DNA from: Psammoneis japonica
Taxonomy: Eukaryota
Length of the DNA stretch: 53,055 nucleotides
Reading direction: 5' to 3'
NCBI GenBank assembly: GCA_008632985.1
Contig: QPGO01000238.1
Span: forward strand, 62,001 to 115,055
The translations under genes and the position numbers were made by a program. How positions within the stretch are numbered: position 1 is the first letter of the stretch; every line of letters starts with the position of its first letter. This document shows positions 7,220 to 53,055 of this stretch, piece after piece. The notes under the pieces are model-generated. The model searched no databases and was not told where the DNA came from. It saw only the letters and a program-made list of their open reading frames with translations.

Positions 7220-7339
7220 ATTTTTCGCAGAATTAAAATTCACTAAGGGTAGACAGACAGACAATTTCATATTTTTGCTGGTGCTGGTCTACATAATTTC
7301 TACGTATTTTTATGAAACAATGACTCTACGGCACGAAAG

Positions 7340-12102: not shown

Positions 12103-12240
12103 TGGATTTCCTTTCTTGTCATGAATCTGACTGAAATAATCTTGAAATCTGGGGATGTCTCCACCCCTGACCAGGGCGGGGTCCGGGGAAATGGCGGTGA
12201 CGTGGCAGAATCTTTGTACAGTACAGTGCTGTAGATCGCA

Positions 12241-15660: not shown

Positions 15661-16110
15661 GTGAATCATAGCTTCGCTCGGGTCGTTTGGGATGCCTAAA
15701 ACACGTCGTTCGCTTGTTTTGTTTTATTCACTACACTGATTTAAACCATTTGATTGCTTCAGCGATAATGAAGCCTGTCTCCTTAACAGTGTCGCTCGGT
15801 TCTCTCGACCCTCGTCTAGCTGGCTCCCCCTGCCGTTTCGCCTAGACTACTTAGTGGCATTGTTTGGATCGTTTATGTCGCGACCTTTCATGCAAAACAA
15901 CACAGCGGAGTCTGACACACACAAAAAGAAACGAACCAACCAATAGACCATGCCAAATTGATTCACCAATTGGATGTTCTAGTTCGAGAACGGAAAAATG
16001 GTCCATGAGCATTATGATAGAAAAGCGCACTTAAGTAGGGCGTTTGCAACGAGACTTATTGAGGTGTACATTTTCTTCCAATCGCACCACAGATTGTATC
16101 TTCCAATAGC

Positions 16111-23037: not shown

Positions 23038-23419
23038 TTTTTCGGCAAATAACAGGGGCGAAACACTCTAGAAGATCTCAATCAGTTTTTGGCTTTCTAA
23101 CTTCTCGGTTTCATTGATACTTCTGTCTCACACCGGTATTGAGTATGCATCGCTCTGTCCTTTCATTGCTCATTGCGTTTTGGAGTTCTGAGTCAGAGCT
23201 TGCAGGTTTCAGGTGTCAGGGTCAGAGAGTTTCGCGTGCACGTGCGCGAAATTCGGACAAGTGGACGGACGGAATCGGGCTTCTGTCAATAAATAAATCA
23301 AGCAATCCAAATCATGCATTGTCGGTCGGAGAATTCAATTTCGCGCACCGAAAGCAAGTGTCATTCTCTCGACAACATTGGACGATGTTGACGACGCTGG
23401 GTGCGAAGATCTACGTCGT

Positions 23420-24880
23420 GCATCACCGCTTGAGAGGAGCCTGCATCAACACTGTGTTGCTCTGGTGTTGTCAGGAGCAGAGCTCTCAATCAGCCTGAAG
23501 CCCCCCCCCCCCCCCCCCGAGGCTCCAGGCTTGTTCGTCACTGTGTCTGCCTCACACTTGTGCTGAGCTCAAGTCAGTGAATCATGGCTCTGCTCTCTTG
23601 TTGGCTTTTTTTTTTTTAACTTGCCTTGTTGAAATTTGCCATCATGTGGAGTCAACTCTCGTGTTGCTCATTTGAAGGCAACTGGTCAATTGCAAGATGA
23701 AAAAAAGAAGGATTTTGCATGGGCATCACAACTCTGTGCTCGCATTTGCTGTCAGCCACACAACCCAGTTGTGCCGCACTTTTGTTTCATTGTCTCACTT
23801 GTTTTCTTTGATGCACCCATCTTCATTGCTCATGTGCAAGGAGGCACTTGAGTTGGCACGAACAACAATGGCTGACAGTTTGGTGTTGGTGTGGGTGCCA
23901 TTTTGTTGAGACCGAATTTCTTCATCATTGCAAAGCAGCACTGTGGCGTGCCCTGCACTTGGTTTGAATCAAACGAGCATCCAAAAATCATGCAAACAAC
24001 AACTCTGAACATGATGGCACACACATCTGTGTTGTCTCTCTGTGGCAAGTGATGCTCTTGTGAATGAGTTGAGCTGATGTGAAGTTGATGCAGCAATCAT
24101 TGACAATGCTCTCAATCAACTGACACACAATTTTGCCACAAAATGTTTTTCCCTGTGTTGTGGAGCACACCATGGTTTCACATTTCATTTGTGTGGTCAC
24201 TCTTGATTTTGTTTGGTGCATGAATGTCCGGCTCACATTGTGATTTGTGCAGCACTGGACCCTGCTGAATGAAAACAGAGAGAGTTGTTCTGCAGCAAGG
24301 CAGAACTCTTGTTTTTGTTGTGCTGGCAAGGCTGTCAGCTTCACAACTCACACTGGCCCCTGCTGAACAAAAAAAAGAGTGCTCAAGTTTTCAACCCATC
24401 TTTTGGTCAAGCAGATTGTGAATCAAAACAAGCACCCAAGAAACCATGCAAGCAACAACACATTGACCGCAGGTTGGTGTTGGCACATGCTGCACACAAT
24501 CAACTCCAGCCAGATGAAAGAGAGCACACCATTCAGTGCTCTGGAGAAACACACACATTGTTGGAAGTGCACCTTCCTGCCTTTGGCTTGTCCAAAGAGT
24601 GCTGAGATGCAAGGCACTCCATGGCTTTTGCATGTCATCATGTGTGCTTTGGTTGTGAGCGACCAGCTCGAGGCGGTCACGGGAGAATTGCTCGCCTCAG
24701 ATCCACACACAATTGCACTCCAAGAGTGTCCTTCTGCAGATTGGGCCTCACAAGCAGCAGCTTTGGTGGATGACTGTGTTTTGATTGGATTTGCAGCTTT
24801 GCATGCGGGTCATGTCGCATTGTTGGTCAAGAAGGAGCTCATTTTGGAACAAGAGCGTCGAGTTTGTCACGGTGACGAGG
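23420..24880. mobile_element. TpA/CpG-depleted tract beginning near a C18 run (23501-23518)
   Basis: Almost no TA over about 1.4 kb; TG/CA excess. Confidence 0.45.
24655..24860 (+). pseudogene. Endonuclease/exonuclease/phosphatase (EEP) domain fragment, hypermutated
   Basis: QLEAVTGELLASDPHTIALQECPSADW resembles the EEP 'PDIIxLQE' motif; downstream DDCVLIG and AGHVALL are consistent with Tyr-to-Cys/His changes. Confidence 0.55.
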
Positions 24881-25684
24881 TGATTTTGAACAAGACTATA
24901 ACCGAAATCAACAGTACTTGAGATTCGTCCCATGAGGTTCACATTCATATACATTTTGACAAGGGGTCTGCAGTGGCGGACATTACAAACACGAGTACAT
25001 TGATGGTGGAGCCTACCGGTTCTGAATCTTGTCGGCTTATTGGTACCTTTGCGATTGCCTCTTCTTCCATAATGGATCAAGTTATTAGGGTGTTTTGGAA
25101 TGAAATCAGCAAAAAGGGCTTTTCAAGAAGAACTACAAGATTATGAAAAAGAATCTTTGAAACGATACCAAAAGGAATCATCATCAAGTACTGAATCATC
25201 TGGTGGATAGGTTACGTACCTCCTATACGTAGATATCAGTTGTCTTTCGTGTAACAATGCTACAGGAGTATCTTACAGAAAAGATAGTGCGTAACGGAAA
25301 CCAACACAGAGGAGAGAACAATGCTTTCACCGACACGTCTCAGGGAGGCAAATAACAAACTACTTGATCTCACATGAGTCCCGAAAGTTGAACCGTCAGC
25401 CGTACGGTGTCATTGGAAAGTATTCATCGTGGAAAACTATCTGCAGTGCAGAAATATTAATGATCAGCCCTTTCTAACTTTCCAATAAGTCATCTGGGTG
25501 TTGGCGAGTCCTGCGCTCTCCCTCGATCCCTGCTAATCACGACATCACGACTTTTTATGTTTGTTGGTCTTATATTACTATCTTACATGTTCTAATCCCC
25601 CAGCTTGTCTACTGCATCAGCAAAATGGTAGGTATCTGAAGCTTCACAAGTCAAGCACTGCTCGAGCCTACGCTTTGCTGAAGC

Positions 25685-26935: not shown

Positions 26936-28249
26936 GATCTTGACGATTGCTGCGTGATTGTAACATCAATTAACAAGAATGGGCGTCAACAATGGTTTAC
27001 TGGAGATGCGGAAAGAAAACGACCGATACAAACAACGATGTCCTGACACATACCCATTGCAGCAACAGATCCATCTTTTCCAGACGCCATAATGCTCTTT
27101 CTTCGAGACTTGGCCTTCTTTGCTTTCTGACCCAAAATAGAGATACAAACAACGACGCAATGAAGGAAATGAGAAGAAATGGATTGGACTTGCGTTCTTC
27201 TCCGTGAAAACGGCCGTAACGTAGAATTTGTATCAAAGCCTGCGATCCGAAACGCAGTAACGGCAGCATGGGACCAAGGCAACGGCTAATTGCTAAACTG
27301 CAACGGCTGTCTCTCAAAGCAGTAGGTTGACAAAACCACATCCAGAGCTCATGACGACGACTCGAAAGAAAGAGAATCAGCCCGGATAGGCATCACATCA
27401 CATCATGGTTCGGTGTGCAGCGGCTAATACAGCATCCACATTATCTACCCGCAATATACACACAAACACGACAAATATATGCGCACAAAACCCCACGCTG
27501 GACTTTTTTGTTCAACAAAAAAGACGAAACGCATACTCACAAAGAGCCGCCCTCCACGCTGATTTACAACCACTCACCTTTTTGGCTGCGGCACTCACGT
27601 GCGATGTTTTGACAGTACGAGCGCTTGAATAGGACGTGACACTGGCATTGTCGTTCGACATGGTATAGATGTCGTAGCAAACAAAATCTCAAGAGATTAT
27701 TGTGTCGTCTCTGTCAAGAATGAACAAAGTGCGAGTGAACAAGAGAGAGACGAGCTTGCCACGATCAAATTTCTCAACGAGGTTTGAGAAACGTGTTTCG
27801 AGCGTCATTTTCGGAAGAAAATAAAATATGTTTGGTGCTTGGGCAAACAAGCAAGGTGCGGTGGAAATTCTCTCTAATTCTACAGATGCGTGACATTCCC
27901 TCCACCATCAAAGAAATGTAACAGTGACGGGATAGCATCTTGGTCCATGACGACGGTGAAGACACACGGCAGCAGAGAGAAAGCAGATCGATTTTTGATG
28001 CACTGTTCTTTTTGTACAGGCAACAATAAGGTGCCAAGGCGGGAAATCATGGGATCGCTTGATGCGAAAACTGCACTTGACCGTTGCAAAGGAACCATGA
28101 GGTTTGTTACATCGCGTCCGTCAAAACCAGAATCACCATGGTGCGATATGGACGCTGCGTGGCATTTTTTTACCTGGTGTGGGCAGAAGGTTTTGATTAA
28201 CTCGACTCGAGCGAAGCGAGAGTCATCTCGCAAAAGTAACCCGGATGTT

Positions 28250-29480
28250 AAAGTGGGGAGAACTGACAACTGCACAAGCACCCATCACCCCAAAGGCAGC
28301 TGCACTCAAGGACAAGGAATGGCATGCAAAGCAAAATGTAACATACAGACAAGGAGCTTGTGCAGAAACAGGGTGTCCAGCCAGCACACCAGCACCAGCA
28401 GAGGAGGCTGCAAGAGGAGGCAGAGCACAGCACGAAGAAGCAAGAAGAGAAGCCACCACAGAAGGGGCAAGAGCCTGCACAGAGGACAGTTGGCATGTGG
28501 TGTGCCTTGAAGAACCAGGTGGATGGGGTGAACAAAATGCCAAAAAAAGGGGAAATTGTGAGACTTCTTTGGGAGCTACAAGCAAGCAGTTGTGTGAGAT
28601 GCTTTGCAGCACAACCCAACAAAAGCTCATTGCCGCCCCAGCAGGCCAGCCAAGAATCTCTGTGTGTTGTCCATGACCAAGCAGCACCCTGAACAGTGTT
28701 TTCAACACCACTTTGGGGTGTGACCCAGTTGTCATTGAGAGCTGCCTCACTGAAAACTGCTCCAGTGCTTGTTGACGAATGTCCAAAAGTGCGCACGCGA
28801 AAGCTCGCCTGAGCTTGCTGAAGATGTCTCTCTGCTGCTGTGCACTGAAGAAAAGGCAGAAGTTCACAGGCGTGCAGCATCTGAGGTGGCCAGAAATGAT
28901 TTCCAGCGTGTGCCAGTGCAAGGCAAGCAGTGGCAAAAGCAGGGTGGGAAAGCAAAGGCTTGCTTTGGTGAGGATGGCATGGGCAAAGTCAAGAAGCCAC
29001 ACAGAGAGAAACAAGCCAACTTGGTGCAGTCTTGGCACCAGGTGGTGGCCAAAGAGTGCACACCATTGTGCGCAGCAACTGCTTGTCAGGTGCCAGCCAA
29101 CAAGAGGGCTCAGCAGCGGCAGTGCTGGCCAGCTCCCAGCTGCCAGAGCTCGGCCAGCCTCTCACATTGCCAACTCAGAACACTTTGTGGCAGAGTTGAA
29201 AAGCAAAATGCTTTGATCACTGTGTGCAGCATGGCGGCAGGAAGGAAGTGGGTGAGACAAGCTTGAGGTGGGCGAGACAAGCTTGCTCTCCTCTCTCGCA
29301 CTGCAAAAGAAGAAACAACAACAGAGAGACAGGAAACAAGCAACAGCTGACAACAGCAATTCTTTCTGCTTGGAATGCCGTCACGTTTTCTATGTTCACT
29401 GTCCTCGTTGCTTGCGTGAGACTGGCGACATTTGTGCCACAAGATCTGTCTTCTCCGTGCCCGCTGCCGCATGACGGCGT
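28250..29480. mobile_element. TpA/CpG-depleted degenerate tract
   Basis: TA nearly absent, TG/CA excess; no recognisable protein. Confidence 0.45.
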
Positions 29481-29576
29481 TTTAAAGCTGTGTTTGACTA
29501 ACTTGATTAAAATGGCAAAGGGGCAATGCGTGATGACTCAAAAAATTTACCCCTGTAAGTAAGCAACAATTCGCCT

Positions 29577-29696
29577 TTATGTACGGTACAACCTTGTTAC
29601 GTCCTCTGCCTTATGTACGGCACAAAATTTGTGCCGTACATAAGGGGCAATTACTTAAAGGATGACCTTCCACGTCAGCGCTGTCGTTATGTACGG
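29577..29696. repeat. Perfect 37-bp palindrome plus repeated TTATGTACGG motif
   Basis: ccttatgtacggcacaaa-a-tttgtgccgtacataagg at 29609-29645 (18-bp arms); TTATGTACGG also at 29577 and 29687. Confidence 0.92.
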
Positions 29697-30922
29697 CATC
29701 CCACATTGTTTGACGACCTGCCCGCTGCGTTACTAGTCTAATGTTTCGAAAGCACGGGGTTGTTGAACGGCGGACGGGCGACGAGAAAACCGTTTTTAAA
29801 AGCACAAGCGCCTTTTACCGTAAATCCGAATGTTTTGATTTCAAAAAATGCACCACTGATGATGTCAACGATGTGGGCACCATTGCAACTCCACACTATC
29901 ACATCTGCCACTGGAGAGCAGAGGTGCGACAAAAAATCCTTTCGTGTTGCATGAGGATGTTCGGCAAAGGGTGAAGCGCGACAGCTCGTCTGTGGGCTTC
30001 ATGCCGTTGCAAAAAAATGTTCGGCAGTGACAAGTCTGCAGTTGGTGCTGCATCTATGCTGCAGGACATGGGAACACAACGGAACTTTGTGTGTCATTCA
30101 GAGAAAGCCACGGATGCTCTACGATTGGGACAAAACAGCGCTTCATCGAACCAAGTCCTCGCCTCTTGCTCAGCGCCAATGTTGATTGTGAGTGATGCCC
30201 CCTCAAACATCAGAGGTGTCCAACCATCTCTAACTCTTCCTTTTTTTCGCAGGGTGTGATGCATCTTCTGAAGACACAGTGCAGCCTTCAACTTCGTTGG
30301 GGTTTCAAACTTCAACGGGGTTCAAAGTTTGCACAGACCCTGATGGTGTTGGCATCCCGTCCGCCATTGCTTCAAGACTCCTGCGCAACCTGGAATTTTC
30401 GCTAGATCCATCCTCTGCTGGGCTCCCATTTTGCACAGGATTGCAGCCACTGGGGAGTTCTGCTGTGGATGAATCCTCCTCTCCTTGCTTGCACTGAGCT
30501 CGAGCGCTTGGTTCAAATCGAAAAACACTGTCTCATTTCAGCCGTTTTTCGTTTGAAATTTCTAAAATTCACCCCAAAACAAGGGGGTTCCCAGCCTCAA
30601 TGGAATCTCCTGCAGAAGTGCATGACTGAGCATGCGGTGCGTGAGCAGATGATGAGCCTCGGGTGTGAAGAACCCATGTTGAATGGCTTTGTGTTGATTT
30701 TAAGAACATCATTTGTCAAGCGATCGAAACGCAGTGACTTTTTGTGCAACAGTCCTTCCAATCTGATGTGTGGCTTTAATGCGATCATTCATGACGTGTT
30801 GCCCGCAGGGGTGGACAGGCACGTGCACACCGCAGCAACTCGACCATCCCCTGTCTGAAACGTCTCCATCCAACGCAATGCATCGCATGCAACAACTGCT
30901 CCATCCCCTGTCTCAGCGCCCA

Positions 30923-31280
30923 AGGAACCCCCGCAAGAAAGTTTGTAGCCCCAAGGAATGCAAGCGCGAGAAGTTTGTAAAGCATCGGGAAACCCCGCGA
31001 GAAAGTTTGCAGCCCCCCAGGAAAGCAAGCGCGAGAAGTTTGTAGAGCGTCAAGAACCCCCACAAGAAAGTTTCTAGCCCCCCAGGAACGCAAGCGCGAG
31101 AAGTTTGTAGAGCATCAGGAAGCCCCGAGAGAAGTTTGTGGCCCCCCAGGAATGCAAGCGCGAGAAGTTTGTAGAGCGTCAGGAACCCCCGTGAGAAAGT
31201 TTGCAGCCCCCCAGGAACGCAAGCGCGAGAAGTTTGTACAGCAGAACGTCAGGAACCCCAGCGAGAAAGTTTGTAACCTC
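30923..31280. repeat. Minisatellite, unit about 64 bp, about 5.5 copies
   Basis: Unit approximately ggaacccccgcgagaaagtttgtagccccccaggaacgcaagcgcgagaagtttgtagagcgtca. Confidence 0.93.
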
Positions 31281-32611
31281 AAAGGACCCCAAAGAGAAAG
31301 CTGCAATTAGCACTGCAGAGCTGAATGTTGCACATGGGATTCAACGGATGTGACACAGGTGTGCATGTGTCCTGTTAAAAAATCGATTAAAAACAGATAA
31401 ACCGGATCTGAAAATCTTGTGTAAAAACGAGAATGACCCTCACCGAATTTTTAACGCGAAAAACGACACGGCCATGGCGACAAAAGCCGCTCGCGTTGCT
31501 CCCACACTGTTCCATGCTACAAAACCAAGGCATGAATCGACCCGTCTTGTTGATCAGACATTAAAATACAACAACCTGGATCATCCACAACAAACTTGGT
31601 GCTCAAATCGAGTGCGCACTCTTGACACCAAAAATGACGCCCTGCAGAGACCCACACAAATTCTGCGCAAAAATGAAATCACCAATCAACAACCCTGTTA
31701 CAAACGGCAACTGGCAACGCCACACATGCCACCTCAGCAATCCACCAACACATCACGAGGTGTGTCAGACAATGAAGGATACGCCCACATCAATGAAAGT
31801 GCCACACCACACAAACGGCGACAACAGTGAGCGGGTCATTGTCGATGATGCATGTTTGTGTGACTCCGATGGCCACGGATTGAGAATTTCACGCTGTGGG
31901 GGTAAAAGCGAAGACACACAGGCAGACGAAAAATGCATGACCTTCAGTCATGCATGTCTGCTTCTACTCACACAAACACACATGTGCGTGATGAGTCTGG
32001 CGGTCCTGACCGTCAACAGAAATCTTGCAGTCTCACTCTCTTTTGCGAGTGACTCTGAAATCTAGCCACTGTCTGGTAGAGCTGCCAGCAGAGAGCAGTG
32101 CAGCTACGACACTTCTGCCTCAAAGCAGCTGGCAGCTTCCACTCTAGAGAGTGGAGAGCAGCGACCATTCTCCACTCTCTGCTCTCTGCTGGCAAGAGCA
32201 GCCAGGGAGCAGAGCTCTGCGCCTCTCCACTGGAGCAGAGAGCCAATCATGTTGGAGAGGCTCCAATGTTCCTTTGCAGGTGACACTTGGACTCGGCTCA
32301 CAAAATTCATTCCACGTGCTTTTTGTCCCACCACAAGAGTGTTTCTGAGTCAAAGTTGACTGTTCCTTTTTTTTCTCAGACCAATTTCTGTCCTGAGACA
32401 AGGTGAGCTTGACTGAAGTTGCTTGATTTGTTGTCAGAGTCAACGAGACACACAACAAAGTGGCACAGCCTGAAATGGAAAGCAAGATGCAACTGGCATG
32501 TCTAAACAGCATCAAGAGGGTGCAAGTGTGGGGTCATGAGACATGGTGCCTCTGTTCCAAACTCAATTTGTGTTGGCCTCTGGTTCATGTGTGCTTGCAT
32601 CATGTGCAAAA

Positions 32612-32817
32612 TGGTGTTTCCCGAGTGCGCATTTTGATCATCCGACCCAAGTGGGCACTTTGGTTGGTGTGCAAATTTGTTGACAAAGTTGATTTTGCTT
32701 CCAAAAATTTGGCAAAAAACAATGTGGTTGGTCTGCAACAAATTGGTCAACCAAAGTGTTTTGGATTGACCAAAATGCCTGATTTGGTCAACCAAAATGC
32801 ACACTCGGGAAACACCA
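32612..32817. mobile_element. Small MITE-like element with 25-bp terminal inverted repeats
   Basis: tggtgtttcccgagtgcgcattttg (32612-32636) versus caaaatgcacactcgggaaacacca (32793-32817); 1 mismatch. Confidence 0.6.
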
Positions 32818-33816
32818 ACAAACCAGGTGTGAAGCCAGCAATGTCTGAGCCTGTGAAGCCACAGCAGTGGCAACACACAGCACACTGAGGGGGGCCATGT
32901 CCAGAGCTGCATGGAACTTCTTCAGATGAAACAGCACGGGGTTTGACCAGCCCACCATTGTGCTGTTGGTCAGTTGTTCAACCCCGCATCCTTGGAGTGC
33001 TGCACATCTGTGTGGGGGTTGGCACCACACAGCACATGTGGAACATGTGCCAACTCTGCTGCTTGTTCTCTCACAGCACTCACAGCATTTTTTGTGCATT
33101 GTCCTCATCATCTTAACTGGGGGTTGTCATTTGAGTTTGGGTGTAAAAACTGATGGTGCAGCTGCACCCCCTGACATGAGCTTGGTTTTTCCCACATGTG
33201 GCACAAACATGCAGCCACTCAGCATCAATGTGAGAGTGCTGTTGTGAAATGAAGAGCAGTTTGTGACTTTGGCTGACACCTGAGACATGAAATCTTATGA
33301 CAACATTGCCAAAATGGCAAAACCTTTGGTCATTTGTGCAAGTGCAGAGGGATGCCCAAATTTGGAGCTGCTCAAATCACATGAACCCGGGCTTTGGTTT
33401 TGAGGATCTGTGATGAACAACATCATGGACAACCTCTGGCTGCAGCAGAAGCAATGTCAATCGGGGTTTTTTGCCAGATTGTGAGTTGATTCAAACTGGT
33501 TGAAAAGGAAAAGGTGGCTCACTGCGCTGTTGAAGCAGCACATGACTGGAAAGAAAGAGATTGCCAAAACATGAGGGGCCCTCAAAACAGACTCTTTCAA
33601 AGAACGAGCACTTGCACTCACCAAAGCGGAGCTTTGCCTGCTCTTTGAAAGGTTTTCTGATGGCAGCAGGAGCCCTTGGAGGAACGCAAATGGCAAAAAA
33701 AAAGCTTCGCTGGCTTCAAAACAAACACAGAAAGAGTCATGAGCTCAGCACCATGAGCTGCTTTCCAAAAATCACATTCTTGAGCACCTGCACACCCCAA
33801 CTCCACAGTGAAAGGA

Positions 33817-34032
33817 TCGCAGCCAAGACTCCAAGCCAAGCAAGGAGAGGACCTCCTTGACTGGACCGAGAGTCACCGCGCGAATGCAGGAGCGAAATGG
33901 GTTGAAGGACGGACGACGGACGAGACGAGCGGAAACGAGGCCAGCCCAAGGGATCCCCTCATTGTCTGGCAGGATGGGAGACACCATGGCACTGTCAGAG
34001 GCGTCTCCCAGGAGATGCCAACAATGAAAATC
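33817..34032 (+). repeat. Split direct repeat A1
   Basis: 216 bp, differs from A2 at 4 dinucleotide sites. Confidence 0.95.
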
Positions 34033-34961
34033 GAATGGTTTTTCTCTCTCTCCTGTCAGTCAATGCTGAAAATCCCTTGCGTGGTCTGCTTGCGCAGCCG
34101 GGAGTGTCTCGTGCATTGGTGCTGTTTGTTGCCACGCCATTTCGGCGCTGTCCTGTGGATGCACCTCCCCAATTTTTTTCACCACTGGTGCTGACTACGG
34201 TCACGCCATCTTGGCGCCATGTCACGTGGGCATTGCTCTAAATCCTGACTGGGTCCGCTTGTCAGCGTGGACCGCTTCGGCGGCCGAGGATTGCCTCGCA
34301 CTCTGGCCTGTTTGCCACACCTTTCAATGGTGCTTTCTCACAAGGAGCACATCCTCATGTGGACGGTCTCAGCACCATTAAAAGTCCTGCATGGGCAAAC
34401 AGTGGCATGGCTTTTCAATCCGCCTGCCGCTTTTTCCTGAACGCCCATGTTGGGCCCCTTTTCTTTTGCCGCTCTGCGGTTCATGGTCATCGCCTTTCCT
34501 CTCGGCGTGTCCAATTTTTCCCCTCTCCCAGGGACGTGGTGTGTTCAGACTTGTGCACCAGCACACTGCAGTGTCGGAATTACCAGCTCTATCTGGTCGA
34601 CATCAATTGTGTGCACATGTGTGCACTCCCGTGAGGGTTTAGTCAAAACGAAATTTGCCACCACGTTTCGGGGGTTTTTCGTCTTCTCGCGAAATGCGCG
34701 CCATCACGATGATGAATGGTGATGGAAACTGACCCGTCACATGGGAATGAAACTTGGATTTCTTTCTCATCTCCATTCATTGGACAAGTGTGGGAATCGT
34801 GAAGGGTTGCGTTCGCGGAACCGACACGGTGTCAGCCAACGCTTGTCCTTCTCGAGCAATTTCCACACGCTGGTGTCCTTCACTTTCCGGTGAGATTGCT
34901 CTCACTTTTCCTTTTTGCGATCAGACGAGCCTTTGGTTTTCTGCTGCTCTGTTGTTCCACC

Positions 34962-37243
34962 ATGAACCACGCCCACGCTGCTGCCATCAACCGCGGTGAG
35001 CTCTCCGCTGCAAAGCGGCACTCCGCCGCTTTGCCCTCCTCCACGGGTGCGATCGAGTCTGTCTCAACTGCTGTCCACCATGACACCCAGAAGGAGCTGC
35101 GAGACCATGTCTTCACGACCTCTGACCTTTTCTGCGCGGTCTGCAATCGCAAGATTGCGGTTGTGGCGAAACCTCGCCCCAGGCAGCATGCTGATGGGAA
35201 TCTAAAGTGGATCGGGAGCCTCTCGGATACGATCGGCGAGGTCATCCCGATGTTTGGCAGTTGGACTCGTTTCCAAGGCCATGCAACCACTCTAAACCCC
35301 CAGGGCGCTGTGGATGCTCATCACCTGCCCAAGTGCGAACTCAGCCCTGACGAGATTGACGGTCCCGTTGGCAATGACGGCAACAACGTGCCGGCGTCGA
35401 TGGGTCGTCTCCATTTTGGGAATCCTTCCGGACCGGCAGAGCGTCCCTCCATCGTCGCACTCCCGATGTTCCTGCCAATCCCAATGGGCGTCACCCTTCC
35501 TGTTGACTTTGACCCAGCAGATCCCCCAGCATCCCTTGCCACTGACTTTCCGCTCGGAGTGGTTTGGGCTCAGGGTGTGTCCTGGTTGCTTCAGCACAAC
35601 GCGTCTGTCTCTGTCACGGAAGGCGGCCCTGTGTTTGAGCAGAACGGTTTTGCCATTGTCGATGAGTTTGCAGGCCTCAAGATCCACAATCTCGACGACA
35701 ATGATGCACAGATGCTCCAACCTCTGACGGATTGGTGTGCACTAGTCAAGACCACGATGGACGCCTTTGCGGATGAGACCTGGAGGCAACTCGGTGGAGA
35801 AGATCCCGCGCAGACACCAGCTCCCGCCGCCCCAGCCCAAGGCACCAACGGACAGGTTCCGAACCACACCATCAACATCCCGCGCCAGGACTCAAAGAAG
35901 GAGTCAGACCAGAAGCTGAGGGCGTGCGACATTGGCCACCGCTGGTCACTCTGTGCGTTCCGAGTGACTGCTGGCACAGGTCCGGAGGACCCGCCCATGA
36001 TCATCGTGGGCGAGCTTGCGGACCAAGCGGTCAAGATTCTGCAGGACACGTTGGCTGCCAATGCAAACCGTGACCTTGCGGATCTTGTTAAGATGGCTGT
36101 TGTTGCATCAGCCCGTGGTGACAGTGGTCTAGATGCTGGGGTCGATTGCAAGTGCACCACAGTCAACAAGGCCACACGGACTGTTTCCGCGGCTTTAATG
36201 TGGTTGCGGAGCCCCCGCAGTGTGGCCAGGCTTCGCACCGTATGAAGCTGTCTGTCTTTCCCTTTCTTCCCCTGAAGACTGCATCATCTTCATTTGCTGG
36301 TCTCAAGGACGAAGGGAGGACACTCCATCGGGCACTTGCCAACGGCTCTGACTGCAAGATCCCCGATGACGCGAAGGCAAGCGACCTTTGCATCCAAGGA
36401 AGGATGGACACTGCCAGCGATCTGTGGTCAGCACTTTGCAACTTTCGCTGTGTCCTTGGATGTTGGATCAAGGACTTCGACAATGCGGAGCTGTGGAAGT
36501 CCCTGGATGTGTGCGCAAAGGTTCTCTGGTCGCACCCGGGCCGTGCGTGGCTCAAGAATCTCGAGGACCCGAAACCAGTCGTCGCTGGCATCCTAGATGA
36601 TTTCCAGACTGTTGTCAAAGTCTACTTTGAGATCGGAGACTCTCCCTTGTACCGTCAGGCGGTAGAAACCGAGCGTCCGCTGAGCTGCCAGACAGCAAAG
36701 GACGCTCGCACTCTGGTCAAGTCCCTCATTGCGGACCTCAACACCGCGATCACGCGGGGCAAGCCTCTGGCCTTTGCAGAGGCATCTACATTGGCCCTTG
36801 TCCCCCCAGGCAACTCTGTGTTTCCCTCTGCTGCTAGCGGAACGAAGGACAATGCGACCAAGTCTGGTCAACCTCCGAATGAGAAGCCGCGCACAGGGGA
36901 AACAGATGAGAAAACCACCGAGCTCTGCAAAGCGATGGGTGTGCTCAATTTTTCGGGCACGAAGTGGCTCCCGACCAGCCCCGTTTTCTACAAGAAGCGA
37001 GGATCAGATCAGGAGGAACGTGTCTGCATGTGCTTTTGTACTGAGGGGCACTTCTGCAAGTTCCCCAACTGCCCGAAGCCCCACCCATCGTCTCTCTCCA
37101 AGATTCCGAGTGAAAAGAGGGATGCCTTTTGCCAATTTGTCAAAGACACCCCTGGACTCGATTTTGTCCCTGGCAAGGGCCCAGACGGTGCATCCCAATC
37201 AGGTTCAAAATTTTCTAGTCTATGCACCACACCCTGTTGCTAA
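34962..37243 (+). pseudogene. Gag-like ORF1 of the YR retrotransposon (frameshift near 36175), C-terminal Cys/His finger
   Basis: ORFs 34890-36245 and 36146-37243 overlap in different frames; C-terminal CMCFCTEGHFCKFPNCPKPH is CCCH-like; position upstream of RT; the first 451-aa ORF has no Tyr. Confidence 0.7.
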
Positions 37244-37323
37244 TGCAGTGTTGTCCAAAACTGTTTTGTTTTTACTCTTGATTAGTCTGCATTATCCCGG
37301 ATAGGTCCGTTCGTCTCATCGCA

Positions 37324-40212
37324 ATGGATGTCGACGACGACAGCGATCAGGAGTGCGAGGTGATCGATGCAGAAAAAGAAGAGACCGGAATGAGCATCGA
37401 TGATGCCATCCCAGCTGTTGACGCTGCACTTGCCACGTCGGTGAAAGAGCCGCACCCGAGCCTGCGCCGAGGTGCGGTCACGCCGCAGCCTCCCGTCGAC
37501 GAGAATGAGCTGATTGAGCCATTCCCTACCTTCTCCATGGTCCATAAGAAGAAAGGGACCAATCTGATTCCTACAATCAACAACGGCTTCAACAAGAAGG
37601 CACGTGAGCACTTTGCCAATGCGGAACTGTCACCGGGCGTGCGTGCCAAACTGGACCAAAAATTCGGCAAGGAAAGCTTGAATCAATGTTTCTTGTTGGA
37701 AGCGTGTTTGCGTCATGTGTTGTCACCGCTGTTGAAATCCGGACACCTTTTGCCACCGGTTGATTGCGTGAGTGACTTGTCTGCCCAAATCGCCTTTGGG
37801 GGCGATTGGGAGAACTTCGGAGCGGCCATCCCGGAAGCAGCCGAGTTCATGAGTCTGGTCCAGGAACATGGCGACATCGACTTTAATCCTCTCCAAGGCT
37901 ACCCCAAGGGATGGCAAAAGGAGACAACGGTCAATGCGGATAGAGCCGCGATGACAACTGCCGCATTGTTGCATTTTGATGGCGACCCAGCAAACCTGGT
38001 TCGCTGGGTTGGCGGACCGCACGTCGGTGAACACAGATGCACGCAGAAAATGCTCCGCTTTCTACAAGGTCGTGTGCCCGACGAGACAATGGCACACGTT
38101 CGCCGCATCTTCCAAGACGGGGCGCCAGCGAAATGCAACACTGCTTTCTCTGAAGCAAACTTCCAAGCAGCTCTCAAGTGCGGAAACCACAAGGCCGTTG
38201 ACGCTGCACCTGACAAAACATTGGCGGCAGTCGTCAAGGACAATCGCAAGGGTTTCACGCTGCTTTTTGACCAGCGTCTGGTGCCATGCTTGCTGAACTG
38301 CCATCTCACTCCTCAGGGGATGGTGGACCTTGACAAGAAATGCAAGAGTCCGCGCCCCATCTTCGACAGTGCGATGCGAGCGACTCCGGGCGGTGCAGCA
38401 ATCAACGACACGTTGGACCTCAAGCACGAACCGCCGATCACGTTCCCATCAGCGGAAATGGACTTTATGGTGTGGACATGGAACATGAGAATGTCCTGCC
38501 CACATGAGGAGATCTGCCTTGGCAATGATGATGTGAGTGGCGCTTTCCGCAACATGAAGCACCACCCGAACCTTGTCGGGATGCATGCCAGCGTCCAGTG
38601 TGGACCAGGCGTCCTACAGACGGGTTGCACCTTCGGCGACAAGACCAACCCAAGCAACTGGGACGCCATTGCCAACGCAAGACAACATCTTGCTCAACAC
38701 TTCTGGCTGGTGCCCAACATGGTGGAGCTCGCCCAGCAGTGTCTCCCGTCGACATCATTCGCGGAACCTCCAACAGCTGAAGAGGTGGCGTCATTCTGTC
38801 CTGCGGAAGCAGACGCTGTCAATCCGGGCATGTTCCTAGACGGCAACCGTCTCCCACCAACATGCAAGCACCACATCGATGACAACTTCTACGGAGACAC
38901 ACGTGACTTGATGAAAAGAACAGTCGCTGTGAGCGCCCTGGCCGTGTGCATTGTGTTGGGCTTCCCACGCGATGAAACTCCGGATTTCCCAAGCAAAGAG
39001 AAACTGGACACACTGTGCTCGCATCTCCGACGAGCCCTGGGAAGGCACTTCAACTCAAGAGCACTGTCGGTGGGAATGCTCCCATGCAAACGAGAACAGT
39101 TCCTTGAAACTTTGCAAGAATGGTGTGACAAACAACGGCACACACTGTTGGATGCAGCGAACCTGAATGGTCAATGTGAATTCCATGCGCGGTGTTGTCC
39201 ATGGGCTCGGCCGAATTTTTTTGCACTCCAGAATTCCGTGCGGCGGGCTGTGGTCGTCCAATGCGCCATTGTCAAACGAATCATGGAGCGACAAAATTTC
39301 AAATTAAATTTTGAAACTCAACTGCCGAGTCATCTCAGGAATGGGCTGCCGAGCTCACTCGCGCGCACACAAGCCCAGCTCCTCTGTGAGCTGAAGATCG
39401 AGATCCCGATGACATCCGATGTCATTGATGTGATGAAGGATGCAGCATCCTACATCGAATCGACGCCAGACCCATGGACAGCACCGATTGGATGTGTCAT
39501 GCTGCGAGTGCCACATTGCCAAGCAATTGGAGACGCCAGTGACGCAGGCGGAGGAGCCCACTGCGCGGAACTCAAATTTTGGTTCGCATTTCTTTGGGGA
39601 CCAAAAATGGCGAAAGGGCTCCGGCTGAGGAAGGCCTCCGACCCAGAGTGTGTCCATGTCAACACAGCAGAGTTTGTTGTCATCACACTCAAGCTGGCAG
39701 CTGCAATTGTCTGCATGGAGACTATGACCCGAGAACGGGCCCATGAGTTCTTCCGGAACGGCGTCGTCCCGCTGCACCTGGTCGTCAGGAGTCGTTCAGA
39801 CAACATGGTGTCGGTCAACCGGTCCAACAAAGCAACGTCAAAGTCGCCACAGGGGCAACGATTTGTTTGGGTCTTCTGCGAATTGCTCCGCCGTGCTCGT
39901 GCCAACTTCAACGGTGATCACATCTTTGGCGACGAAAATTTTGTTGCCGACGACATCTCACGACCTTCTGTTTTTGCCTTGATCTCGCATCGCACCCATT
40001 CTGAACAGCTGTTTCGGAAGTGTCCCTTTCTGAAGACCTGGGACTGTTTCCAGCCGAGTCAAGAGCTGCTGCAGCTCCTCTCCTCACAGCTGTCTACCAA
40101 GCACAGAATGGCACCCCAGATCCCAAACGACTTGGGACAGCTCGTTCCCGCAGAATCCATTTCCTCTGCTTTTACAAGAGTGCGAAGTGGCACCTGGGAG
40201 ATCCGGAAATGA
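37324..40212 (+). pseudogene. Reverse transcriptase-RNase H ORF of the YR retrotransposon; open frame but YxDD mutated
   Basis: RT motifs DDVSGAFR, TFGDKTNPSNW and HIDD (expected YxDD); RNase H motifs GDAS, HVNTAEF, SDN and HIFGDENFVADDISR. Confidence 0.9.
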
Positions 40213-41261
40213 CTGTGATTGGCAAGGACCCAAAGTGCTGCCAACTGGTGCCAGCTGTGCATGCGTTGCATCTAGCTAGCGGCTCCACTCTCTACTGCAA
40301 GAACATCTCCTCAGGTGCCATCAAGGAATGCGTCCACGACGTGTCAACGTTCGTGTCTCTGTTTGGTTCCACGCATCGGGACGTCCGTAAAGACAACAGC
40401 GTGGACACCAAGATGGGGTGGATCCTCAGGAGAGCATTTGATGAACTCCAACGGTGCGAGAAAGTCCTGGAACGGCGCGAGTCATGCACGTTGCTGATGC
40501 AGCAACGAGCGACGTTGACAGCAGACAGCATGCGAGAAACCGACCCGGACGCGATCGAGGTGGTCCTCGCTGACTGGTTTGAGATTGGGCCAATGGCCGG
40601 CTTGCGAAGCATCGAATGGGCTCAATCCAATGAGCACTCAGACCTGGAGAACCCAAGGCTGAACATCTTCGAGGAGACCTGCGTGTTCTGCCTCGACGAC
40701 ATCCGCTGCGAGACAAAAGACAAGCACCGACACACCGGAGCGGATTGTCTCATCCCCAAGCAAGAGGATGTCGAAAGCATGTGCGTCATGTTCCGAGCTC
40801 AGAAGAACATGCACAATGGCGAGGAACGCCAGTTTGCTGTGAATCTTGATGGCAAGCACGACTTGGCAAAGCAGATGCTTCGCGTCATCCGATGTTTCGT
40901 GCAGGTCCGTGGCAAGGACGACAAGATCTGCCCCCTTGCTGTCTACTTCGATCCAAAGGAGGACAAGTGCCATCTCGTCACGTCCAAGAAAATCGAGACC
41001 CACATGTGCCGAATTGCCGCGGAAGTTTGCCACCTCGACCCGGTGAAAGATGAGAAAGCTCTCAGCAAATGGTCGGCTCACTCCCTCCGTGTTGGAGCCT
41101 GCAATGTCCTTCACGAGATGAATTTTAGTGGCGAGCAGATTAAATGGCTGCTCAGATGGCGATCTGATGCCTTTGTGGCTTGTCTCTGCAACTGCCTGGG
41201 TCTTTCCCAGGCCCATTGTCGAGCTCTCGATAAGGCGGCACCCATGCCGTTTTTCGATTAA
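40209..41261 (+). pseudogene. Tyrosine recombinase of the retroelement; catalytic Tyr replaced by Cys
   Basis: GLRSIE (catalytic R), FRAQKN (K), HSLRVGA (HxxR), LRWRSDAFVACL where Y is expected at C (TGT, 41181-41183). ATG at 40209 overlaps the RT stop (ATGA). Confidence 0.92.
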
Positions 41262-41529
41262 TCCATTTGTGCGGATTCAATGTGTCCCCTTTGTGTGTGT
41301 CCTCTCTGCGTGACATAAAATCGCACACTGTTGTCCTGTTGCACCCGAAATTTCAATTTTGAAATTCGAAATTTGATCCTGGCAACGGGACTGTACACAT
41401 GCATTCAGGAGGAACATTCGTCCCTCCATCGTGTCTGAAGAAAATGGATTTTTTTTTTCCGGTTGGCTCTGCCTCCGATGACATGGGCGCGTTCGCAATG
41501 CTTTCAGCATTCCGCATCGGCAGCATGGT

Positions 41530-42209
41530 CTGTGCACAGTGAAAAAGGGAACCAATTGCTTGGCACTGGCGATTCCAAGCCCAGTCCCACATCCTAATTG
41601 CTTCACCCACTGGCGACTATTTTCATCGTGGCAACAACATGAGTCTACACACGGATGTGAGCACTGCGCATGTTGTGGACGACACCAATGTGTTGCATCG
41701 ACAGACAAGAGACGCTTCCACTGTGCCATGTCATCGGAGTGCAGACACGGATTCTCGCAGCCAAGACTCTGAGCCAAGCAAGGAGAGGACCTCCTTGACT
41801 GGACCGAGAGTCACCGCGCGAATGTAGGAGCGAAATGGGTTGAAGGACGGACGACGGACGAGACGAGCGGAAACGAGGCCAGCCCAAGGGATCCCCTCAT
41901 TGTCTGGCAGGATGGGAGACACCATGGCACTGTCGGAGGCGTCTCCCAGGAGATGCCAACGATGAAAATCAAAAACCCACCACTCCCTCCCCTGTGCACA
42001 GTGAAAAAGGGAACCAATTGCTTGGCACTGGCAACTCCAAGCCTGGTCCCATGTCCCAATTGCTTCACCCACTAGCGACCATTTTCATCGTGGCAACAAC
42101 ATGAGTCCACACACGGACATGAGTGCCACGTACATTGTGGACGACACCAATGTGTTGCATCGACAGACAAGAGACGCTTCCACTGTGCCATGTCATCGGA
42201 GTGCAGACA
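41530..42209 (+). repeat. 3' repeat block B1 (41530-41747), A2 (41755-41970), B2 (41992-42209)
   Basis: Direct alignment of B1 with B2 and of A2 with A1. Confidence 0.95.
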
Positions 42210-43413
42210 GCCGAGGCGGAGGCAGGGAATCCGTGGGATTCCACCATGATGACACCACCAACCAACCCAGAAACTGCAACCTGAGGGCATTGGGGGTCTT
42301 TGGGGGTCCCCAGGTGACACTTTGGGGACTGTGGTTGAGCATTGCAAGGCTGTCCTGGCTTGTGCAGTTGTCGCCCAGTCACGTCATCTCACAAAGGAAG
42401 AGACTTGAATCCCAGCTCAGCAGCAAAAGCAGGTGACACTTTAAGAGCCATGGGCAAAGAGCATTGCAAAGTGCCCCTCTTGAACAGCTGCAGCCCTCAG
42501 CCACTTTTTCCCGCAAAGGATGAGACTTGAACATCCCAACTCCACAGAGTGAAAGGACACCGTGATGGGGCGACCAACCAACTCAACAACTGCAGCCTGA
42601 AGGCATTGGGCTGAGCATGAAAAAAGTGAAGTCTGCAGATTTTTGAGAGAAAAGGCTCTCCCAACACAGAGATTCCAGCCACCCCCGCCACTGCACCACA
42701 CTTTGCACTGATTTGTGTTCCAGTTCCTGTCAATCCATTCTGCTGGACAGCCAGATCTCACACAAAAATTGTGCCACTGAGCACGGGTGTGATTTCCATC
42801 ATCTTTCCCAAAACAAACTTGCTGGGAGTGTTGTGGTTCCAGCCTTTGTTCTGTCTTGAGTTGGGACCAAGATGGAAGGCGGGAAATGGGGGGCAAGCCG
42901 TCCTTTCTTCACGCGACATTGCCGTTTTCTACTTTTACAGCAGCGCAACAAAAAATCCGACCGCCGTTCACCACAAACAGATCCGACAGCCTCACACAAG
43001 AGGTCTGTTGCCCCTGCATACTGACCGCTGTTTAAATGTTTTCGCATCATTGCTTTTACCGGTACACAATGTCTCACATCTGTTATGAGGCGTTTTGTGC
43101 GCGGCCGTCAAGGCTCCGCATCTCAATCTGTTGCGACACGGCATCACGCCCATGAGGCATCTGAATGACTCCAGCTCTTGAATTTTTGTTTGAAGACGCG
43201 ACCAATCGCGCTAATACATCTAATGCTCTATCCGCGATGCTTTCAATCATGGATCGAGCGAACGATCGACACTCGACGAGCGGCGAATCAATTCAAGCAC
43301 GAACGATCCGAGCTGTTGCACAACACGCTTCTCACTCTGAACAAGACACATGCACGAATGAGTGACAGCTGAACGTCAGTGCGCTGCTCAATCCTAACAA
43401 CACCAAAGCAGCC

Positions 43414-50538: not shown

Positions 50539-50619
50539 CCGTACCTATGTTGCATGTTTGTTGACTTCTACCCGCTTTTTGGAACACAAAAAAAGTCTTC
50601 TCTTTCGTGCAAAGATAGC

Positions 50620-51850
50620 GAGGCAGGTTCACTTTCGAGCAAGGGCAGCGAGGCAGGATCACGGTCTCCCGAAGACCAGAGCCTGTCACGTAGCTTCTTC
50701 ATGAGGACCTCAACTGTCAGATCATGCCATCCACACAGGTCCAAGGTCCAACACGCCTTGGTCAATTTCTCTGTCTTTGTCATTTTCCCATTCAACTCCA
50801 TGTCCTAATGACAAGCACTTTGCAAGCTCTGACAGCTCCCTCAGATGTTCGCCGTTAAGCCCATCCTGCAAAAGTAGCAAAAATGGAGTTCTCGCACCAT
50901 CACCTTCTGCCTCAACGGGTGCAGTTCCAGCCAGGTTGAGAAAATGACAGCAATCTCTGGGCACCACTTTCATTTGCACCCCCTTCAATGAGTCTGCATG
51001 GACAACACTTGAGATCTGTCCTGAAGCGGCAGTTGAGTGACATGTGCCTTGGTGCATTGATGTGCCATGAACAAGGCCAAGTAGATTGCAATCATCATCC
51101 ATCAGGGGACAACCACTGCACCCAGGCACAGAATGAGTGACCACTGTCAATCACGTTTCCTGTGTTTCGATGACCTGCCCTTTTGTGTGAATGCTTCCGT
51201 GCCCAATCACCAGTCTTCCAACCACACCTCTGCACCTTTCGAGCTTTAGTTTCTGACGGGAAAAAGATCCAGAATTCTCAAGCCTTTTCTTTGTGTCACT
51301 GCACAGCTGGGCGCAGGCAATGTCATTCTTGCCACTTGAGACATGGTCTTCTGGCAAGTTCAAGTTTGTCATTTGAAAGGGTGACGCGTTGCCAGCAGGA
51401 TCTTGGCATTTTTCGTCTGCTCGCCAACGCAGTTCAAACACAGGTGGTGAGCACCCTGAAGCTGCATGTGCAGCAACACAACGGGATTGCTTTGCTGCTT
51501 CATCATTTGTTGCTTGGAGGTTGATGAGTTCCACAAGGACATGCGCTGCAGACACAAGGTGGACAAACTTGCCAACGGCCATGACGAGGCCATGGCCAAT
51601 GTTTGCCCTGTTTCCATCATCATCGCCAATGTCTCCATTGTTTTTGCTGTGTCCACAAGGACTTGTTTGATTGTTGGCGTAAACTTGGATGCATTTTTGT
51701 CTGTGCTTGTCCCAAGAAGCTTGTTCTCAAGCTCTTCAAACTTGCTGTCAAGATTTTTTAAAGGCTTTTCCAACCTCCTCTTGTGTGATTCGGCGCAATC
51801 TGGTTTCAAGCTCTTGTTCTTGGGCTGTCATTTTCTACCTGCCACAATGG
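50620..51850 (-). pseudogene. Trypsin-like serine peptidase with N-terminal coiled coil, hypermutated and disrupted
   Basis: Triad motifs in order across broken frames: LVSAAHVL (His), NDIACA (Asp), PGCSGCPLMDDDCNLLGLVHG (Ser); lies in a TpA-depleted tract. Confidence 0.65.
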
Positions 51851-53055
51851 TTCAGCTCGGGTCATGGTGGAAGCACAATGTGGGAGCATGACGGCAAAGA
51901 ACCATGGTTGGTTTTTGGCTGTTTCAACTTTCGACGGCTTTTGAATTCTTTTTTGTGCGGTGATGTGGCTTCAACTTGTGCGACTAAAATCTCAATCTGG
52001 AGCTTGATCAGCCTCGAACATTTCCCTCCACAACTCCTTTCTACAGCACATCAAAACTGCCTTGGCATTTGGAGCACCTTCTGTGACCGTTCCTTGCATG
52101 CACTCCCAATGGTGAGCTCGTTTGACCACAAAGCAGCAGCTTCAAATTGGTGCTCCGTTTTCTGTGGGTGGAGCACACGCCATCACTTTCCAGTGGCCGC
52201 ATGGCTCTCCTGTCAACAGCAGCAGATGGAGAGAACACTCGGCCACAAAGCAATCTCTTGTCAGCTCAACTGGGCTGACAATGACAGTCTTTTGCCTTTT
52301 CATTGACTGTTTTTTTTAAATGCTTCTGGTGCAGATCAATTGCCCATGAGTTGTGGTGCTGTCTCAGCACCATGGCTGAAGCAGCTCTTTTCGCAGAGCC
52401 AAAATTGATTTTTGTGCAGAGAGATCACAGCTCTGAAACCAAGCAAGCTCCAATGTCATTGCTGCTGAGCTGCTGCCATTGACCTTTGTGTGCTCCCTTC
52501 TGTCTCTCAGACAAAGCTGTTGTGACGTCAATGGGGGTCATTCCAATGGCTGCTTTTCACAATGGGGGGTCTTCCATTTGTGCTCAGAGTGACAAGAACT
52601 GTCTGAAGAAGATGCCTTGGTCTGCAAGACAAACAAGCAGAGTGAGGTGTTTCAATCTGTCCTTTCTGCAGAGACCACAGTGGCAGTGAGTGCAGCATGC
52701 CCCCCATCTGAAGTTGTGGTGGTGGAAGGGCAAACTGTTTTTTTCCAAGCACCCAAATTGCCCTTCTTGCACTTTCTGAAACCCCGTTGACATGCCAGTG
52801 CAGCCTTTCCATGCTCCAACATGGACCAAATTGAAAGAATGGTGCTTTGCATGACATCGCCAAGGTGGAGGTCACTGTTGTCTTTTGTTGACTTAAAACT
52901 TCTTACAATCACTCTCTGCCAGAGCACAGAACCATGGAAGCACCCTGGGCTCTAGAACCTGGACTGCTCTGTGGACAATTGCCCCTTCTGCATGAGGTGC
53001 AGGTGGTGTGAGAGATGCCCTTGGAGCCTCGTTGGCAGCTCTGCCTGATGAATGT
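51850..53055. mobile_element. TpA/CpG-depleted degenerate tract continuing off the window
   Basis: Few TA or CG dinucleotides; TG/CA excess. Confidence 0.45.

Follow-up and report, generated by a model that had tools for sequence, protein, structure and literature searches.

Loss of TpA dinucleotides from a young Ngaro-like retrotransposon and its surroundings in an algal genome

The 53,055-nt stretch of contig QPGO01000238.1 that we analyzed (the window; all positions are counted from its first letter) carries, among host genes, a tyrosine-recombinase retrotransposon copy that is young, complete in its architecture and of the Ngaro-like layout A1-[open reading frames]-B1-A2-B2 (Table 1). Both the element and the DNA around it are strongly depleted of TpA dinucleotides, and tyrosine has been replaced at many positions of the element's proteins, including the nucleophile of its recombinase. 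Four plus-strand open reading frames (ORFs, called from stop to stop under the standard code) overlap in series and are all open: ORF1, ORF2, a reverse transcriptase (RT)/RNase H-like ORF (pol) and a tyrosine recombinase (YR) ORF. The same gene order, with its pol/YR overlap, is also found in relatives, and tblastn searches against 80 metagenome loci carrying relatives recovered pol at 80, YR at 44, ORF2 at 41 and ORF1 at 18, many of these contigs being short. The zinc finger of ORF2 (C302, C312, C317 and H321) was kept in 17 of 17 relatives. Downstream of the YR stop codon at 41261, the internal repeats B1 and A2 and the terminal repeat B2 all lie on the plus strand, and we applied the rules for Ngaro-type layouts given in excerpts of PMC4157794. 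Repeat searches at the element ends returned direct repeats only and no inverted terminal repeats, the absence of which ruled out a Dirs1-like identity.

Further observations concern the structure of the element. The first ~68 residues of the YR frame (40005-40212) lie upstream of its first Met and overlap the end of pol; they are nonetheless conserved, with tblastn matches starting from residue 2, which suggests a frameshift fusion or dual coding. In sequencing run X1, whose contigs are k-mer contigs rather than reads, one contig joins 42241 to 33819 with two letters between them, forming a head-to-tail junction of the element. Such a junction is expected for tandem copies, or if an element with its own recombinase takes a circular form. 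A second contig of this run connects 33814 with 42575 across 16 other letters and possibly represents an allele or copy without the element. Depth over the element region in this run was 150-740, indicating that the element is multicopy.

The recombinase was recognized from its predicted fold and its family. A predicted model of the YR ORF (predicted local distance difference test score, 87.8) gave Cre as the best Foldseek match (E 6.9e-7), followed by the Tn1549, lambda and XerA integrases, and 36 of 86 YR relatives matched PF00589, weakly. A single-sequence search of the YR against the PDB returned no match, and a Pfam scan of the element's four ORFs found no domain. The residues conserved in the YR family are R, K, HxxR, W and Y, and the window copy is without the Y.

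Tyrosine is the sole amino acid for which every codon starts with TA, and a TA>TG or TA>CA change in such a codon therefore yields Cys (TGY) or His (CAY). Counted from stop to stop, Tyr made up 0 of 480 residues in ORF1, 3 of 373 in ORF2, 3 of 976 in pol and 4 of 418 in YR. We compared these proteins with 67 relatives for pol and 86 for YR. In pol, Tyr stood at 0.31%, against 1.80-4.43% in the relatives (mean 3.16, standard deviation 0.55; z = -5.2), and in YR at 0.96%, against a mean of 3.16% and a minimum of 1.11. Cys was raised in both, to 3.59% in pol (0.77-2.28% in relatives) and 5.26% in YR (maximum 3.84%), while His in pol was not (3.59% versus 2.62-4.83%). A first-pass annotation, made from the letters of the window, had described an element disabled by tyrosine erasure, and its counts of three Tyr in a 962-aa RT ORF and two in the ~350 residues after the first Met of YR were confirmed. 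It was also right to report no Tyr in the first gag ORF, the length of which is 427 aa from its first Met rather than the 451 aa given; the abundance of Cys and His that it noted holds for Cys in pol and YR, but not for His in pol.

The direction of change can be read from conserved columns. Of the 23 pol columns in which half or more of the 67 relatives carry Tyr, 11 read Cys in the window copy, 2 His, 2 Tyr, 4 Phe and 4 another residue, in keeping with the TA>TG/CA direction that the first-pass annotation had proposed. When only columns with at least 80% Tyr were scored, Tyr had given way to Cys or His at four of seven in pol and four of five in YR; treated likewise, 63 of 67 pol and 75 of 86 YR relatives showed no such change. 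The column of the YR nucleophile, Tyr in every relative, reads Cys393 here (TGT 41181, within LRWRSDAFVACLCNC / ...RWRSDAFVACLCNC), so that the loss noted on first reading stands. Two residues past it, a CpG change has likewise put Cys in place of Arg395, which 85 of 86 relatives keep. In pol, column 528 holds 47 Tyr and 19 Phe among the relatives and Cys here. It lies three residues upstream of the His of the HIDD motif, and this His, which had been taken for the erased Tyr of a YxDD motif, proved to be native: 66 of 67 relatives naturally carry it, with the consensus M-H-V-D-D, so that the refuting condition set in the first-pass annotation applies to this column.

These replacements leave the ORFs open because TA>TG/CA changes only remove TAA and TAG or make TAA into TGA. 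As had been anticipated, no new stops arose: the four ORFs and the relatives' gene order are intact. On both strands of the element, stop triplets comprised 31 TAA, 49 TAG and 282 TGA (282 of 362 being TGA), or 7.2 per kb per frame, compared to 8.5-12.2 at five relatives' loci and 11.0 in host DNA. A description of all six frames as open would be overstated, since TGA remains. With a recombinase without its nucleophile and several near-invariant pol Tyr lost, the copy is, as judged from its sequence, dead without looking dead.

The loss of tyrosine mirrors a loss of TpA at the nucleotide level. Observed/expected (o/e) ratios in the element were 0.145 for TA, 0.83 for CG, 1.32 for CA and 1.46 for TG, and the TA value fell below those of all 80 metagenome loci of relatives (0.29-0.86, mean 0.62). 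Across the pol coding region, 18 close relatives averaged 29.4 TA, 80.7 TG and 71.1 CA per kb, and the window copy had 5.3, 85.9 and 91.9. The sum of CA and TG thus rose from 151.8 to 177.8, so that a TA loss of 24 is balanced by a gain of 26, and TG is not above CA. All four TAN contexts were depleted, with ratios of 0.12-0.29. Survivors are unevenly placed: 15 of the ~60 TA left in the element cluster at 36594-37302, from the end of ORF2 to the start of pol, so the erasure is patchy.

TpA erasure is regional rather than specific to the element, running past both element ends and recurring in six other blocks. A sliding-window map delimited seven depleted blocks, with TA o/e of 0.08-0.23, that cover ~48% of the window; the rest of the window, including non-coding DNA between host genes, stood at 0.56. 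(Three small TA-low blocks inside genes with normal CG, CA and TG were excluded as fluctuation.) In 1-kb bins, TA o/e was 0.33-0.71 over host genes and 0.02-0.25 in the blocks, where CA and TG reached 1.4-2.0. The genes with normal TA encode an acetyl-CoA carboxylase, an AAA ATPase, an EamA transporter, a Spherulin4-like protein and an AMP-binding enzyme, and downstream of the element TA density returns to normal at ~42930, ahead of the next host gene. The median TA spacing is 20 bp, and five stretches of complex, non-repetitive sequence contain no TA at all: 8025-9310 (1285 bp), 23617-24897 (1280), 33296-34196 (900), 14597-15467 (870) and 28577-29391 (814). The older blocks are CpG-poor as well (CG o/e 0.34-0.48) and the element is not, which indicates that TpA erasure is much faster than CpG decay. 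The first-pass view of an element disabled by tyrosine erasure therefore keeps its core, the loss itself, but not its framing as element-specific, as a whole domain and six further blocks are affected.

Table 1. Features of the window. The stretches depleted of TpA follow the element and its parts.
Feature	Coordinates	Strand	Remarks
Element	33817-42241	+	3' end probably near 42241, from head-to-tail joint in run X1
A1, 5' terminal direct repeat	33817-34035	+	97% identity with 41755-41973
ORF1, gag-like	34803-36245	+	First Met 34962; homologous ORF at equivalent place in relatives
ORF2	36122-37243	+	Conserved CCCH zinc finger
RT/RNase H-like (pol) ORF	37282-40212	+	976 aa; motif-based call only
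CAC, His531 of HIDD	38872-38874	+	His in 66/67 relatives
Tyrosine recombinase (YR) ORF	40005-41261	+	418 aa; Cre-like fold (predicted); R201, K267, H359, R362, W385 retained
TGT, Cys393, nucleophile column	41181-41183	+	Tyr in 86/86 relatives
B1, internal direct repeat	41530-41747	+	91% identity with 41992-42209
A2, internal copy of 5' terminal repeat	41755-41973	+	Repeat search
B2, 3' terminal repeat	41992-42209	+	Pairs with B1
TpA-erased older block	7301-10350		TA o/e 0.08, CG 0.38
Two adjoining TpA-poor blocks	11701-14200 and 14551-15700		Sliding-window map
TpA-erased block	23101-24950		No TA 23617-24897
TpA-poor block, partly high-copy repeat	28251-31050		Includes 65-bp tandem array 30923-31275
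TpA-poor domain with element and both flanks	31501-43050		TA o/e 0.13, CG 0.72, CA 1.41, TG 1.54
TpA-erased block at window end	50551-53050		TA o/e 0.11, CG 0.34

The element's own direct repeats, A1/A2 and B1/B2 (437 aligned nt), bear on the timing and strandedness of the loss. No TA was common to both copies, and 22 CG were shared. The differences consisted of seven CA-versus-TG doubles, six TA-versus-CA/TG, four CG-versus-CA, one other transition and no transversions; 22 of 26 CG, and every other site except one, were unchanged. For a CA-versus-TG double to arise, the ancestral dinucleotide must have been TA or CG, and each copy must have mutated on its own, one on either strand. As CpG loss was only ~8% per copy, which explains ~0.1 doubles, the seven doubles come from TA. 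TpA was thus lost from both strands, and once the repeats of the element had diverged. Four pairs of control repeats from host DNA (571 nt) showed no doubles and many transversions. From a two-copy model we infer a conversion of ~80% per TA per copy and ~0.2% at other sites. With no shared TA and about one other change in 437 nt, the repeat copies indirectly suggest a TA rate orders of magnitude above background.

The erasure is not a fault of this assembly. Among sequencing runs, those of one sample (X1-X3) contain the stretch, and no RNA run is listed with it. One contig of run X1, at depth 67, showed 0 differences in 858 positions to the TA-free stretch 24054-24911, and another showed 3 in 1906 over 31926-33831; both lie at single-copy depth (58-67). 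Between the element region and other genomic copies in the same run, transitions outnumbered transversions by 884 to 222, and several CA-versus-TG doubles were present among the 40 differences listed. Erased copies were also found elsewhere. A metagenome contig of 4101 nt (L053) carries a member of the family, 38% identical, with 0.55% Tyr, a TA o/e of 0.29 and one stop only; of the 37 positions that hold Tyr in P0001, an intact relative, 2 are still Tyr in this member, 12 are Cys, 8 His and 15 other residues. Among the 148 best family representatives, three had less than 1% Tyr and a fourth 1.2%, and all four carry Cys or His at family Tyr columns. These four Tyr-erased proteins, all from public metagenome data, are P0432, P0434, P0401 and P0382, the last with His at 8 and Cys at 3 Tyr columns, a ratio opposite to that of the window copy. 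Together with the metagenome contig, these four representatives bear out the expectation in the first-pass annotation that dead copies would be called as Cys/His-rich proteins.

We consider it highly probable that a young Ngaro-like copy had its TpA erased in DNA, after integration, by a fast, regional transition process acting on both strands. Following integration, rapid TpA>TpG and TpA>CpA transitions on either strand would have converted about four in five TA and little else. Tyr would thereby have become Cys or His, including the catalytic Tyr of the recombinase, killing the element with its ORFs still open. The process would fill the repeat-rich and relic islands between host genes and stop at the genes, with a slower CpG>TpG/CpA decay alongside. 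Its chemistry might be deamination of A in 5'-TA-3' DNA, which we rate more likely after a preprint by Mettrop et al. on the chlorarachniophyte Bigelowiella natans (bioRxiv 10.64898/2026.01.13.699255), or a mutagenic modification of T; because TA is self-complementary, the two would give an identical pattern. By analogy with B. natans, the agent would be an enzymatic genome defence of that kind, and its target is presumably silenced chromatin or repeats; the islands might be recognized through repetition, silenced chromatin, small RNA or foreignness. Sharp stops at host genes, together with the CpG decay of the older blocks, fit the targeting of methylated, silenced chromatin.

Four other explanations were weighed. 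Ordinary, slow, context-biased decay of old methylated repeats, without any hypermutation, would accommodate the CpG-poor state of the older blocks, as expected of long-methylated DNA. Yet CpG in the element is barely touched, with 22 CG common to the repeats and 4 gone. Other substitutions amount to ~1 in 437 nt, but not a single TA is preserved by both copies of a repeat, which makes such decay very unlikely. We give even less credence to RNA-level A-to-I editing, in which an ADAR- or ADAT-like enzyme with a 5' U preference would have edited an RNA intermediate and reverse transcription would have fixed the changes before integration. The UA context does resemble the neighbor preference of ADAR, as the B. 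natans preprint also states (bioRxiv 10.64898/2026.01.13.699255), and at Tyr codons Cys outnumbers His by 14 to 3, which could hint at a sense-strand, RNA-level bias. However, both products occur, CA rises more than TG in the pol region, and between the repeat copies within this one element there are 13 differences derived from TA, of which 7 read CA versus TG. Nor are the changes all sense-strand A>G or confined exactly between the element ends: the TA-poor domain extends into the flanks, and six blocks without recognizable retroelement genes are depleted more strongly. We dropped the idea of a strand bias, since neither the bulk gain of CA and TG nor the other erased relatives share the Cys excess.

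A lineage that is Tyr- and TA-poor by nature, still active and carrying Cys or His at these columns, would find support in the native His of HIDD (66 of 67) and in the composition of the closest relatives, which already have lowish TA (0.44-0.65) and high TG. It is hard to reconcile with a nucleophile column that is Tyr in all 86 relatives, a TA o/e outside the range of all 80, repeat pairs of the element itself that have diverged at TA sites, and unrelated neighboring DNA that is equally erased; we regard native composition as extremely improbable. We are just as skeptical of a sequencing or assembly artefact, in which modified bases in silenced DNA were miscalled and the true DNA keeps its TA. 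Self-complementary TA and CG both going to TG/CA is what strand-specific miscalls would produce, and the sole run with this stretch is a single sample, possibly the source of the assembly. Against this, the run X1 contigs reproduce TA-free DNA exactly or nearly, erasure recurs in the unrelated metagenome assemblies described above, and the process in B. natans was reported from Illumina resequencing, according to the abstract, Results and Discussion of that preprint (bioRxiv 10.64898/2026.01.13.699255).

Several points weigh against post-integration erasure in DNA, the Cys excess at Tyr codons among them. The repeat comparison presumes that A1 was identical to A2, and B1 to B2, at integration. 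The nearest relatives are 36-49% identical, and sites were polarized by family conservation rather than by an ancestor or sister copy. Run X1 may be the window's own source sample, and so not independent. CpG decay makes a contribution of its own: Arg has become Cys at four conserved YR columns, and among the 11 in-element differences listed from run X1 (1086 more, beyond those listed, are spread over the 20-kb stretch compared), seven are transitions, six of which have TG or CA here versus CG elsewhere, so that CpG loss adds to the divergence.

The remaining blocks and host genes provide some context. Over 27670-29670, k-mer depth in run X1 was ~1200-1450, compared to ~60-110 for single-copy DNA, marking a TA-poor, high-copy repeat with many internal deletion variants. 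Another TA-poor block holds an inverted repeat, 12386-12625 / 13394-13633, with 82% matched arms and 768 bp between them; the arms differ by seven CA-versus-TG doubles, and the structure may represent old DNA transposon ends or a foldback. Pfam searches with 81 ORFs of the six other TA-poor blocks gave no match at the cut-off (three sub-threshold matches were taken as noise), those with 50 further ORFs of the window found host genes only, and Rfam, tRNA and tandem-repeat scans of the window detected nothing related to TA erasure. The acetyl-CoA carboxylase gene opens (6552-6490, minus strand) with a signal peptide and, directly after it, a Phe (ETALA|FSS), which we take to be a heterokont-type plastid presequence of algae with red-derived complex plastids. 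The carboxylase ORF shares 64% identity with a cluster that includes a Pseudo-nitzschia protein, whereas an Atlas search with it pointed to no useful taxon. The baseline TA o/e, ~0.5, is lower than the 5% cut-off of 0.43 stated for B. natans would permit. From these three lines we take the host for a heterokont alga, probably a diatom, rather than B. natans.

The pol ORF belongs to a family in its own right. Its assignment as RT/RNase H-like is drawn from motifs: the family alignment has the consensus blocks D-D...FG..SP..F...HVDD and DAS...E...DN...AD..SR, which may correspond to motifs A, B and C of an RT and to the D-E-D-D pattern of RNase H. Retroelement RTs usually carry YxDD at motif C. 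In this family, motif C (38863-38886 in the window, residues 528-537) is M/H-H-V-D-D, with His and Val each present in 66 of 67 relatives. None of 34 intact members matched the Pfam RT or RNase H models at E<=1, and the family profile matched no chain among PDB sequences at E<=1; of the named Atlas clusters, those nearest to it have RVT_1 in 10% and 52% of their members, which serves as a lead only. In a library of 1.84 billion proteins, 5301 cluster representatives belonged to the family at E<=1e-3 and, with the stricter threshold of E<=1e-30, 832. This ~930-aa family would thus represent an abundant, unnamed clade of retroelement polymerases, without a Pfam model and with HVDD replacing YxDD. 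A Pfam search of the pol ORF and 34 relatives gave no domain of any kind, methyltransferase included; only ~80 residues remain downstream of the RNase H-like block, and the first 300 residues have no assigned fold.

We lean, by a modest degree, toward the view that a TpA-erasing defence, akin to RIP (repeat-induced point mutation) but chemically opposite, also operates in a heterokont alga (probably a diatom), at far higher load, and in wild microbial-mat and marine populations carrying this retrotransposon family. If true, it would point to an old or repeatedly evolved system across the stramenopiles, alveolates and Rhizaria, one that silently kills mobile elements and shapes much intergenic DNA. 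If the host is a heterokont, TpA hypermutation is not confined to one chlorarachniophyte, and the enzyme would merit a comparative-genomic hunt across two supergroup branches. The window offers a natural experiment, in that the element is young, has few other changes and carries repeats that record independent TA>TG and TA>CA outcomes. There is also a consequence for annotation: dead elements whose TpA has been erased retain long reading frames and end up in protein databases as 'hypothetical proteins' free of Tyr and rich in Cys, for which Tyr content combined with TA o/e makes a cheap filter.

In ascomycete fungi, RIP converts CpA to TpA by C>T changes; both TpA and AT content go up, and numerous stop codons arise. 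The process proposed here resembles RIP in that both are hypermutations by transition, acting on DNA and specific to a dinucleotide, through which repeats are inactivated in blocks and their copies rapidly diverge. Unlike RIP, it destroys TpA, raises GC and creates no stops, a mirror-image chemistry; fungal RIP itself was ruled out, as the ratios in the element (TA 0.145, CA 1.32, TG 1.46) form the opposite pattern. The substrates of APOBEC3 (G>A) and ADAR (A>G) are cDNA or RNA intermediates, and the changes that these enzymes leave are found on one strand and stay within the retroelement. As in such deaminase editing in animals, clustered transitions disable retroelement copies here, but both strands and flanking non-element DNA are affected.

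Among known elements, the copy resembles Ngaro and PAT (order DIRS), which according to excerpts of PMC4157794 likewise combine gag-like ORFs, a pol-like ORF, an overlapping YR and split direct repeats downstream. Unlike these, its pol family has no Pfam RT/RNase H match, and motif C is HVDD, not YxDD. Lack of a methyltransferase separates Ngaro from DIRS/PAT in the same excerpts (PMC4157794). DIRS/Ngaro-like elements have been annotated in Ectocarpus (PMC3145265) and in a Chaetoceros genome (bioRxiv 10.64898/2026.04.27.720831), as excerpts of these two reports state.

The closest parallel to the erasure is found in B. natans, as described in the abstract, Results and Discussion of the preprint (bioRxiv 10.64898/2026.01.13.699255). 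In mutation-accumulation lines, the mutation rate of two integrated viral regions is ~1000 times that of the remaining genome; 230 of 231 mutations in these inserts were A>G or T>C, and every A>G or T>C fell on TpA. The genome contains 124 TpA-poor clusters and 324 TpA-poor coding sequences, the latter enriched for reverse transcriptase and transposase domains, and Mettrop et al. propose an ADAT2-like DNA adenine deaminase. Shared with the window are TpA>TpG/CpA changes on both strands, discrete blocks, and TpA loss with a gain of CpA and TpG as the long-term footprint. Tyrosine erasure without stop codons was not found in those three sections of the preprint, and our literature searches turned up no account of TpA erasure from diatoms or any other stramenopile. 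B. natans is a chlorarachniophyte (Rhizaria), unlike the present host, which looks like a heterokont alga, probably a diatom. Its measured targets are two single-copy viral inserts that still have a Rho_TpA of 0.45 or a TpA frequency above that of the genome. In the present case, erasure extends over about half of a 53-kb window and leaves kilobase stretches free of TA, and the documented victim is a tyrosine-recombinase retrotransposon. A TpA-specific process is thus already in print for one other alga, and the window presents a new instance of it, probably in a different supergroup branch and at a much higher load.

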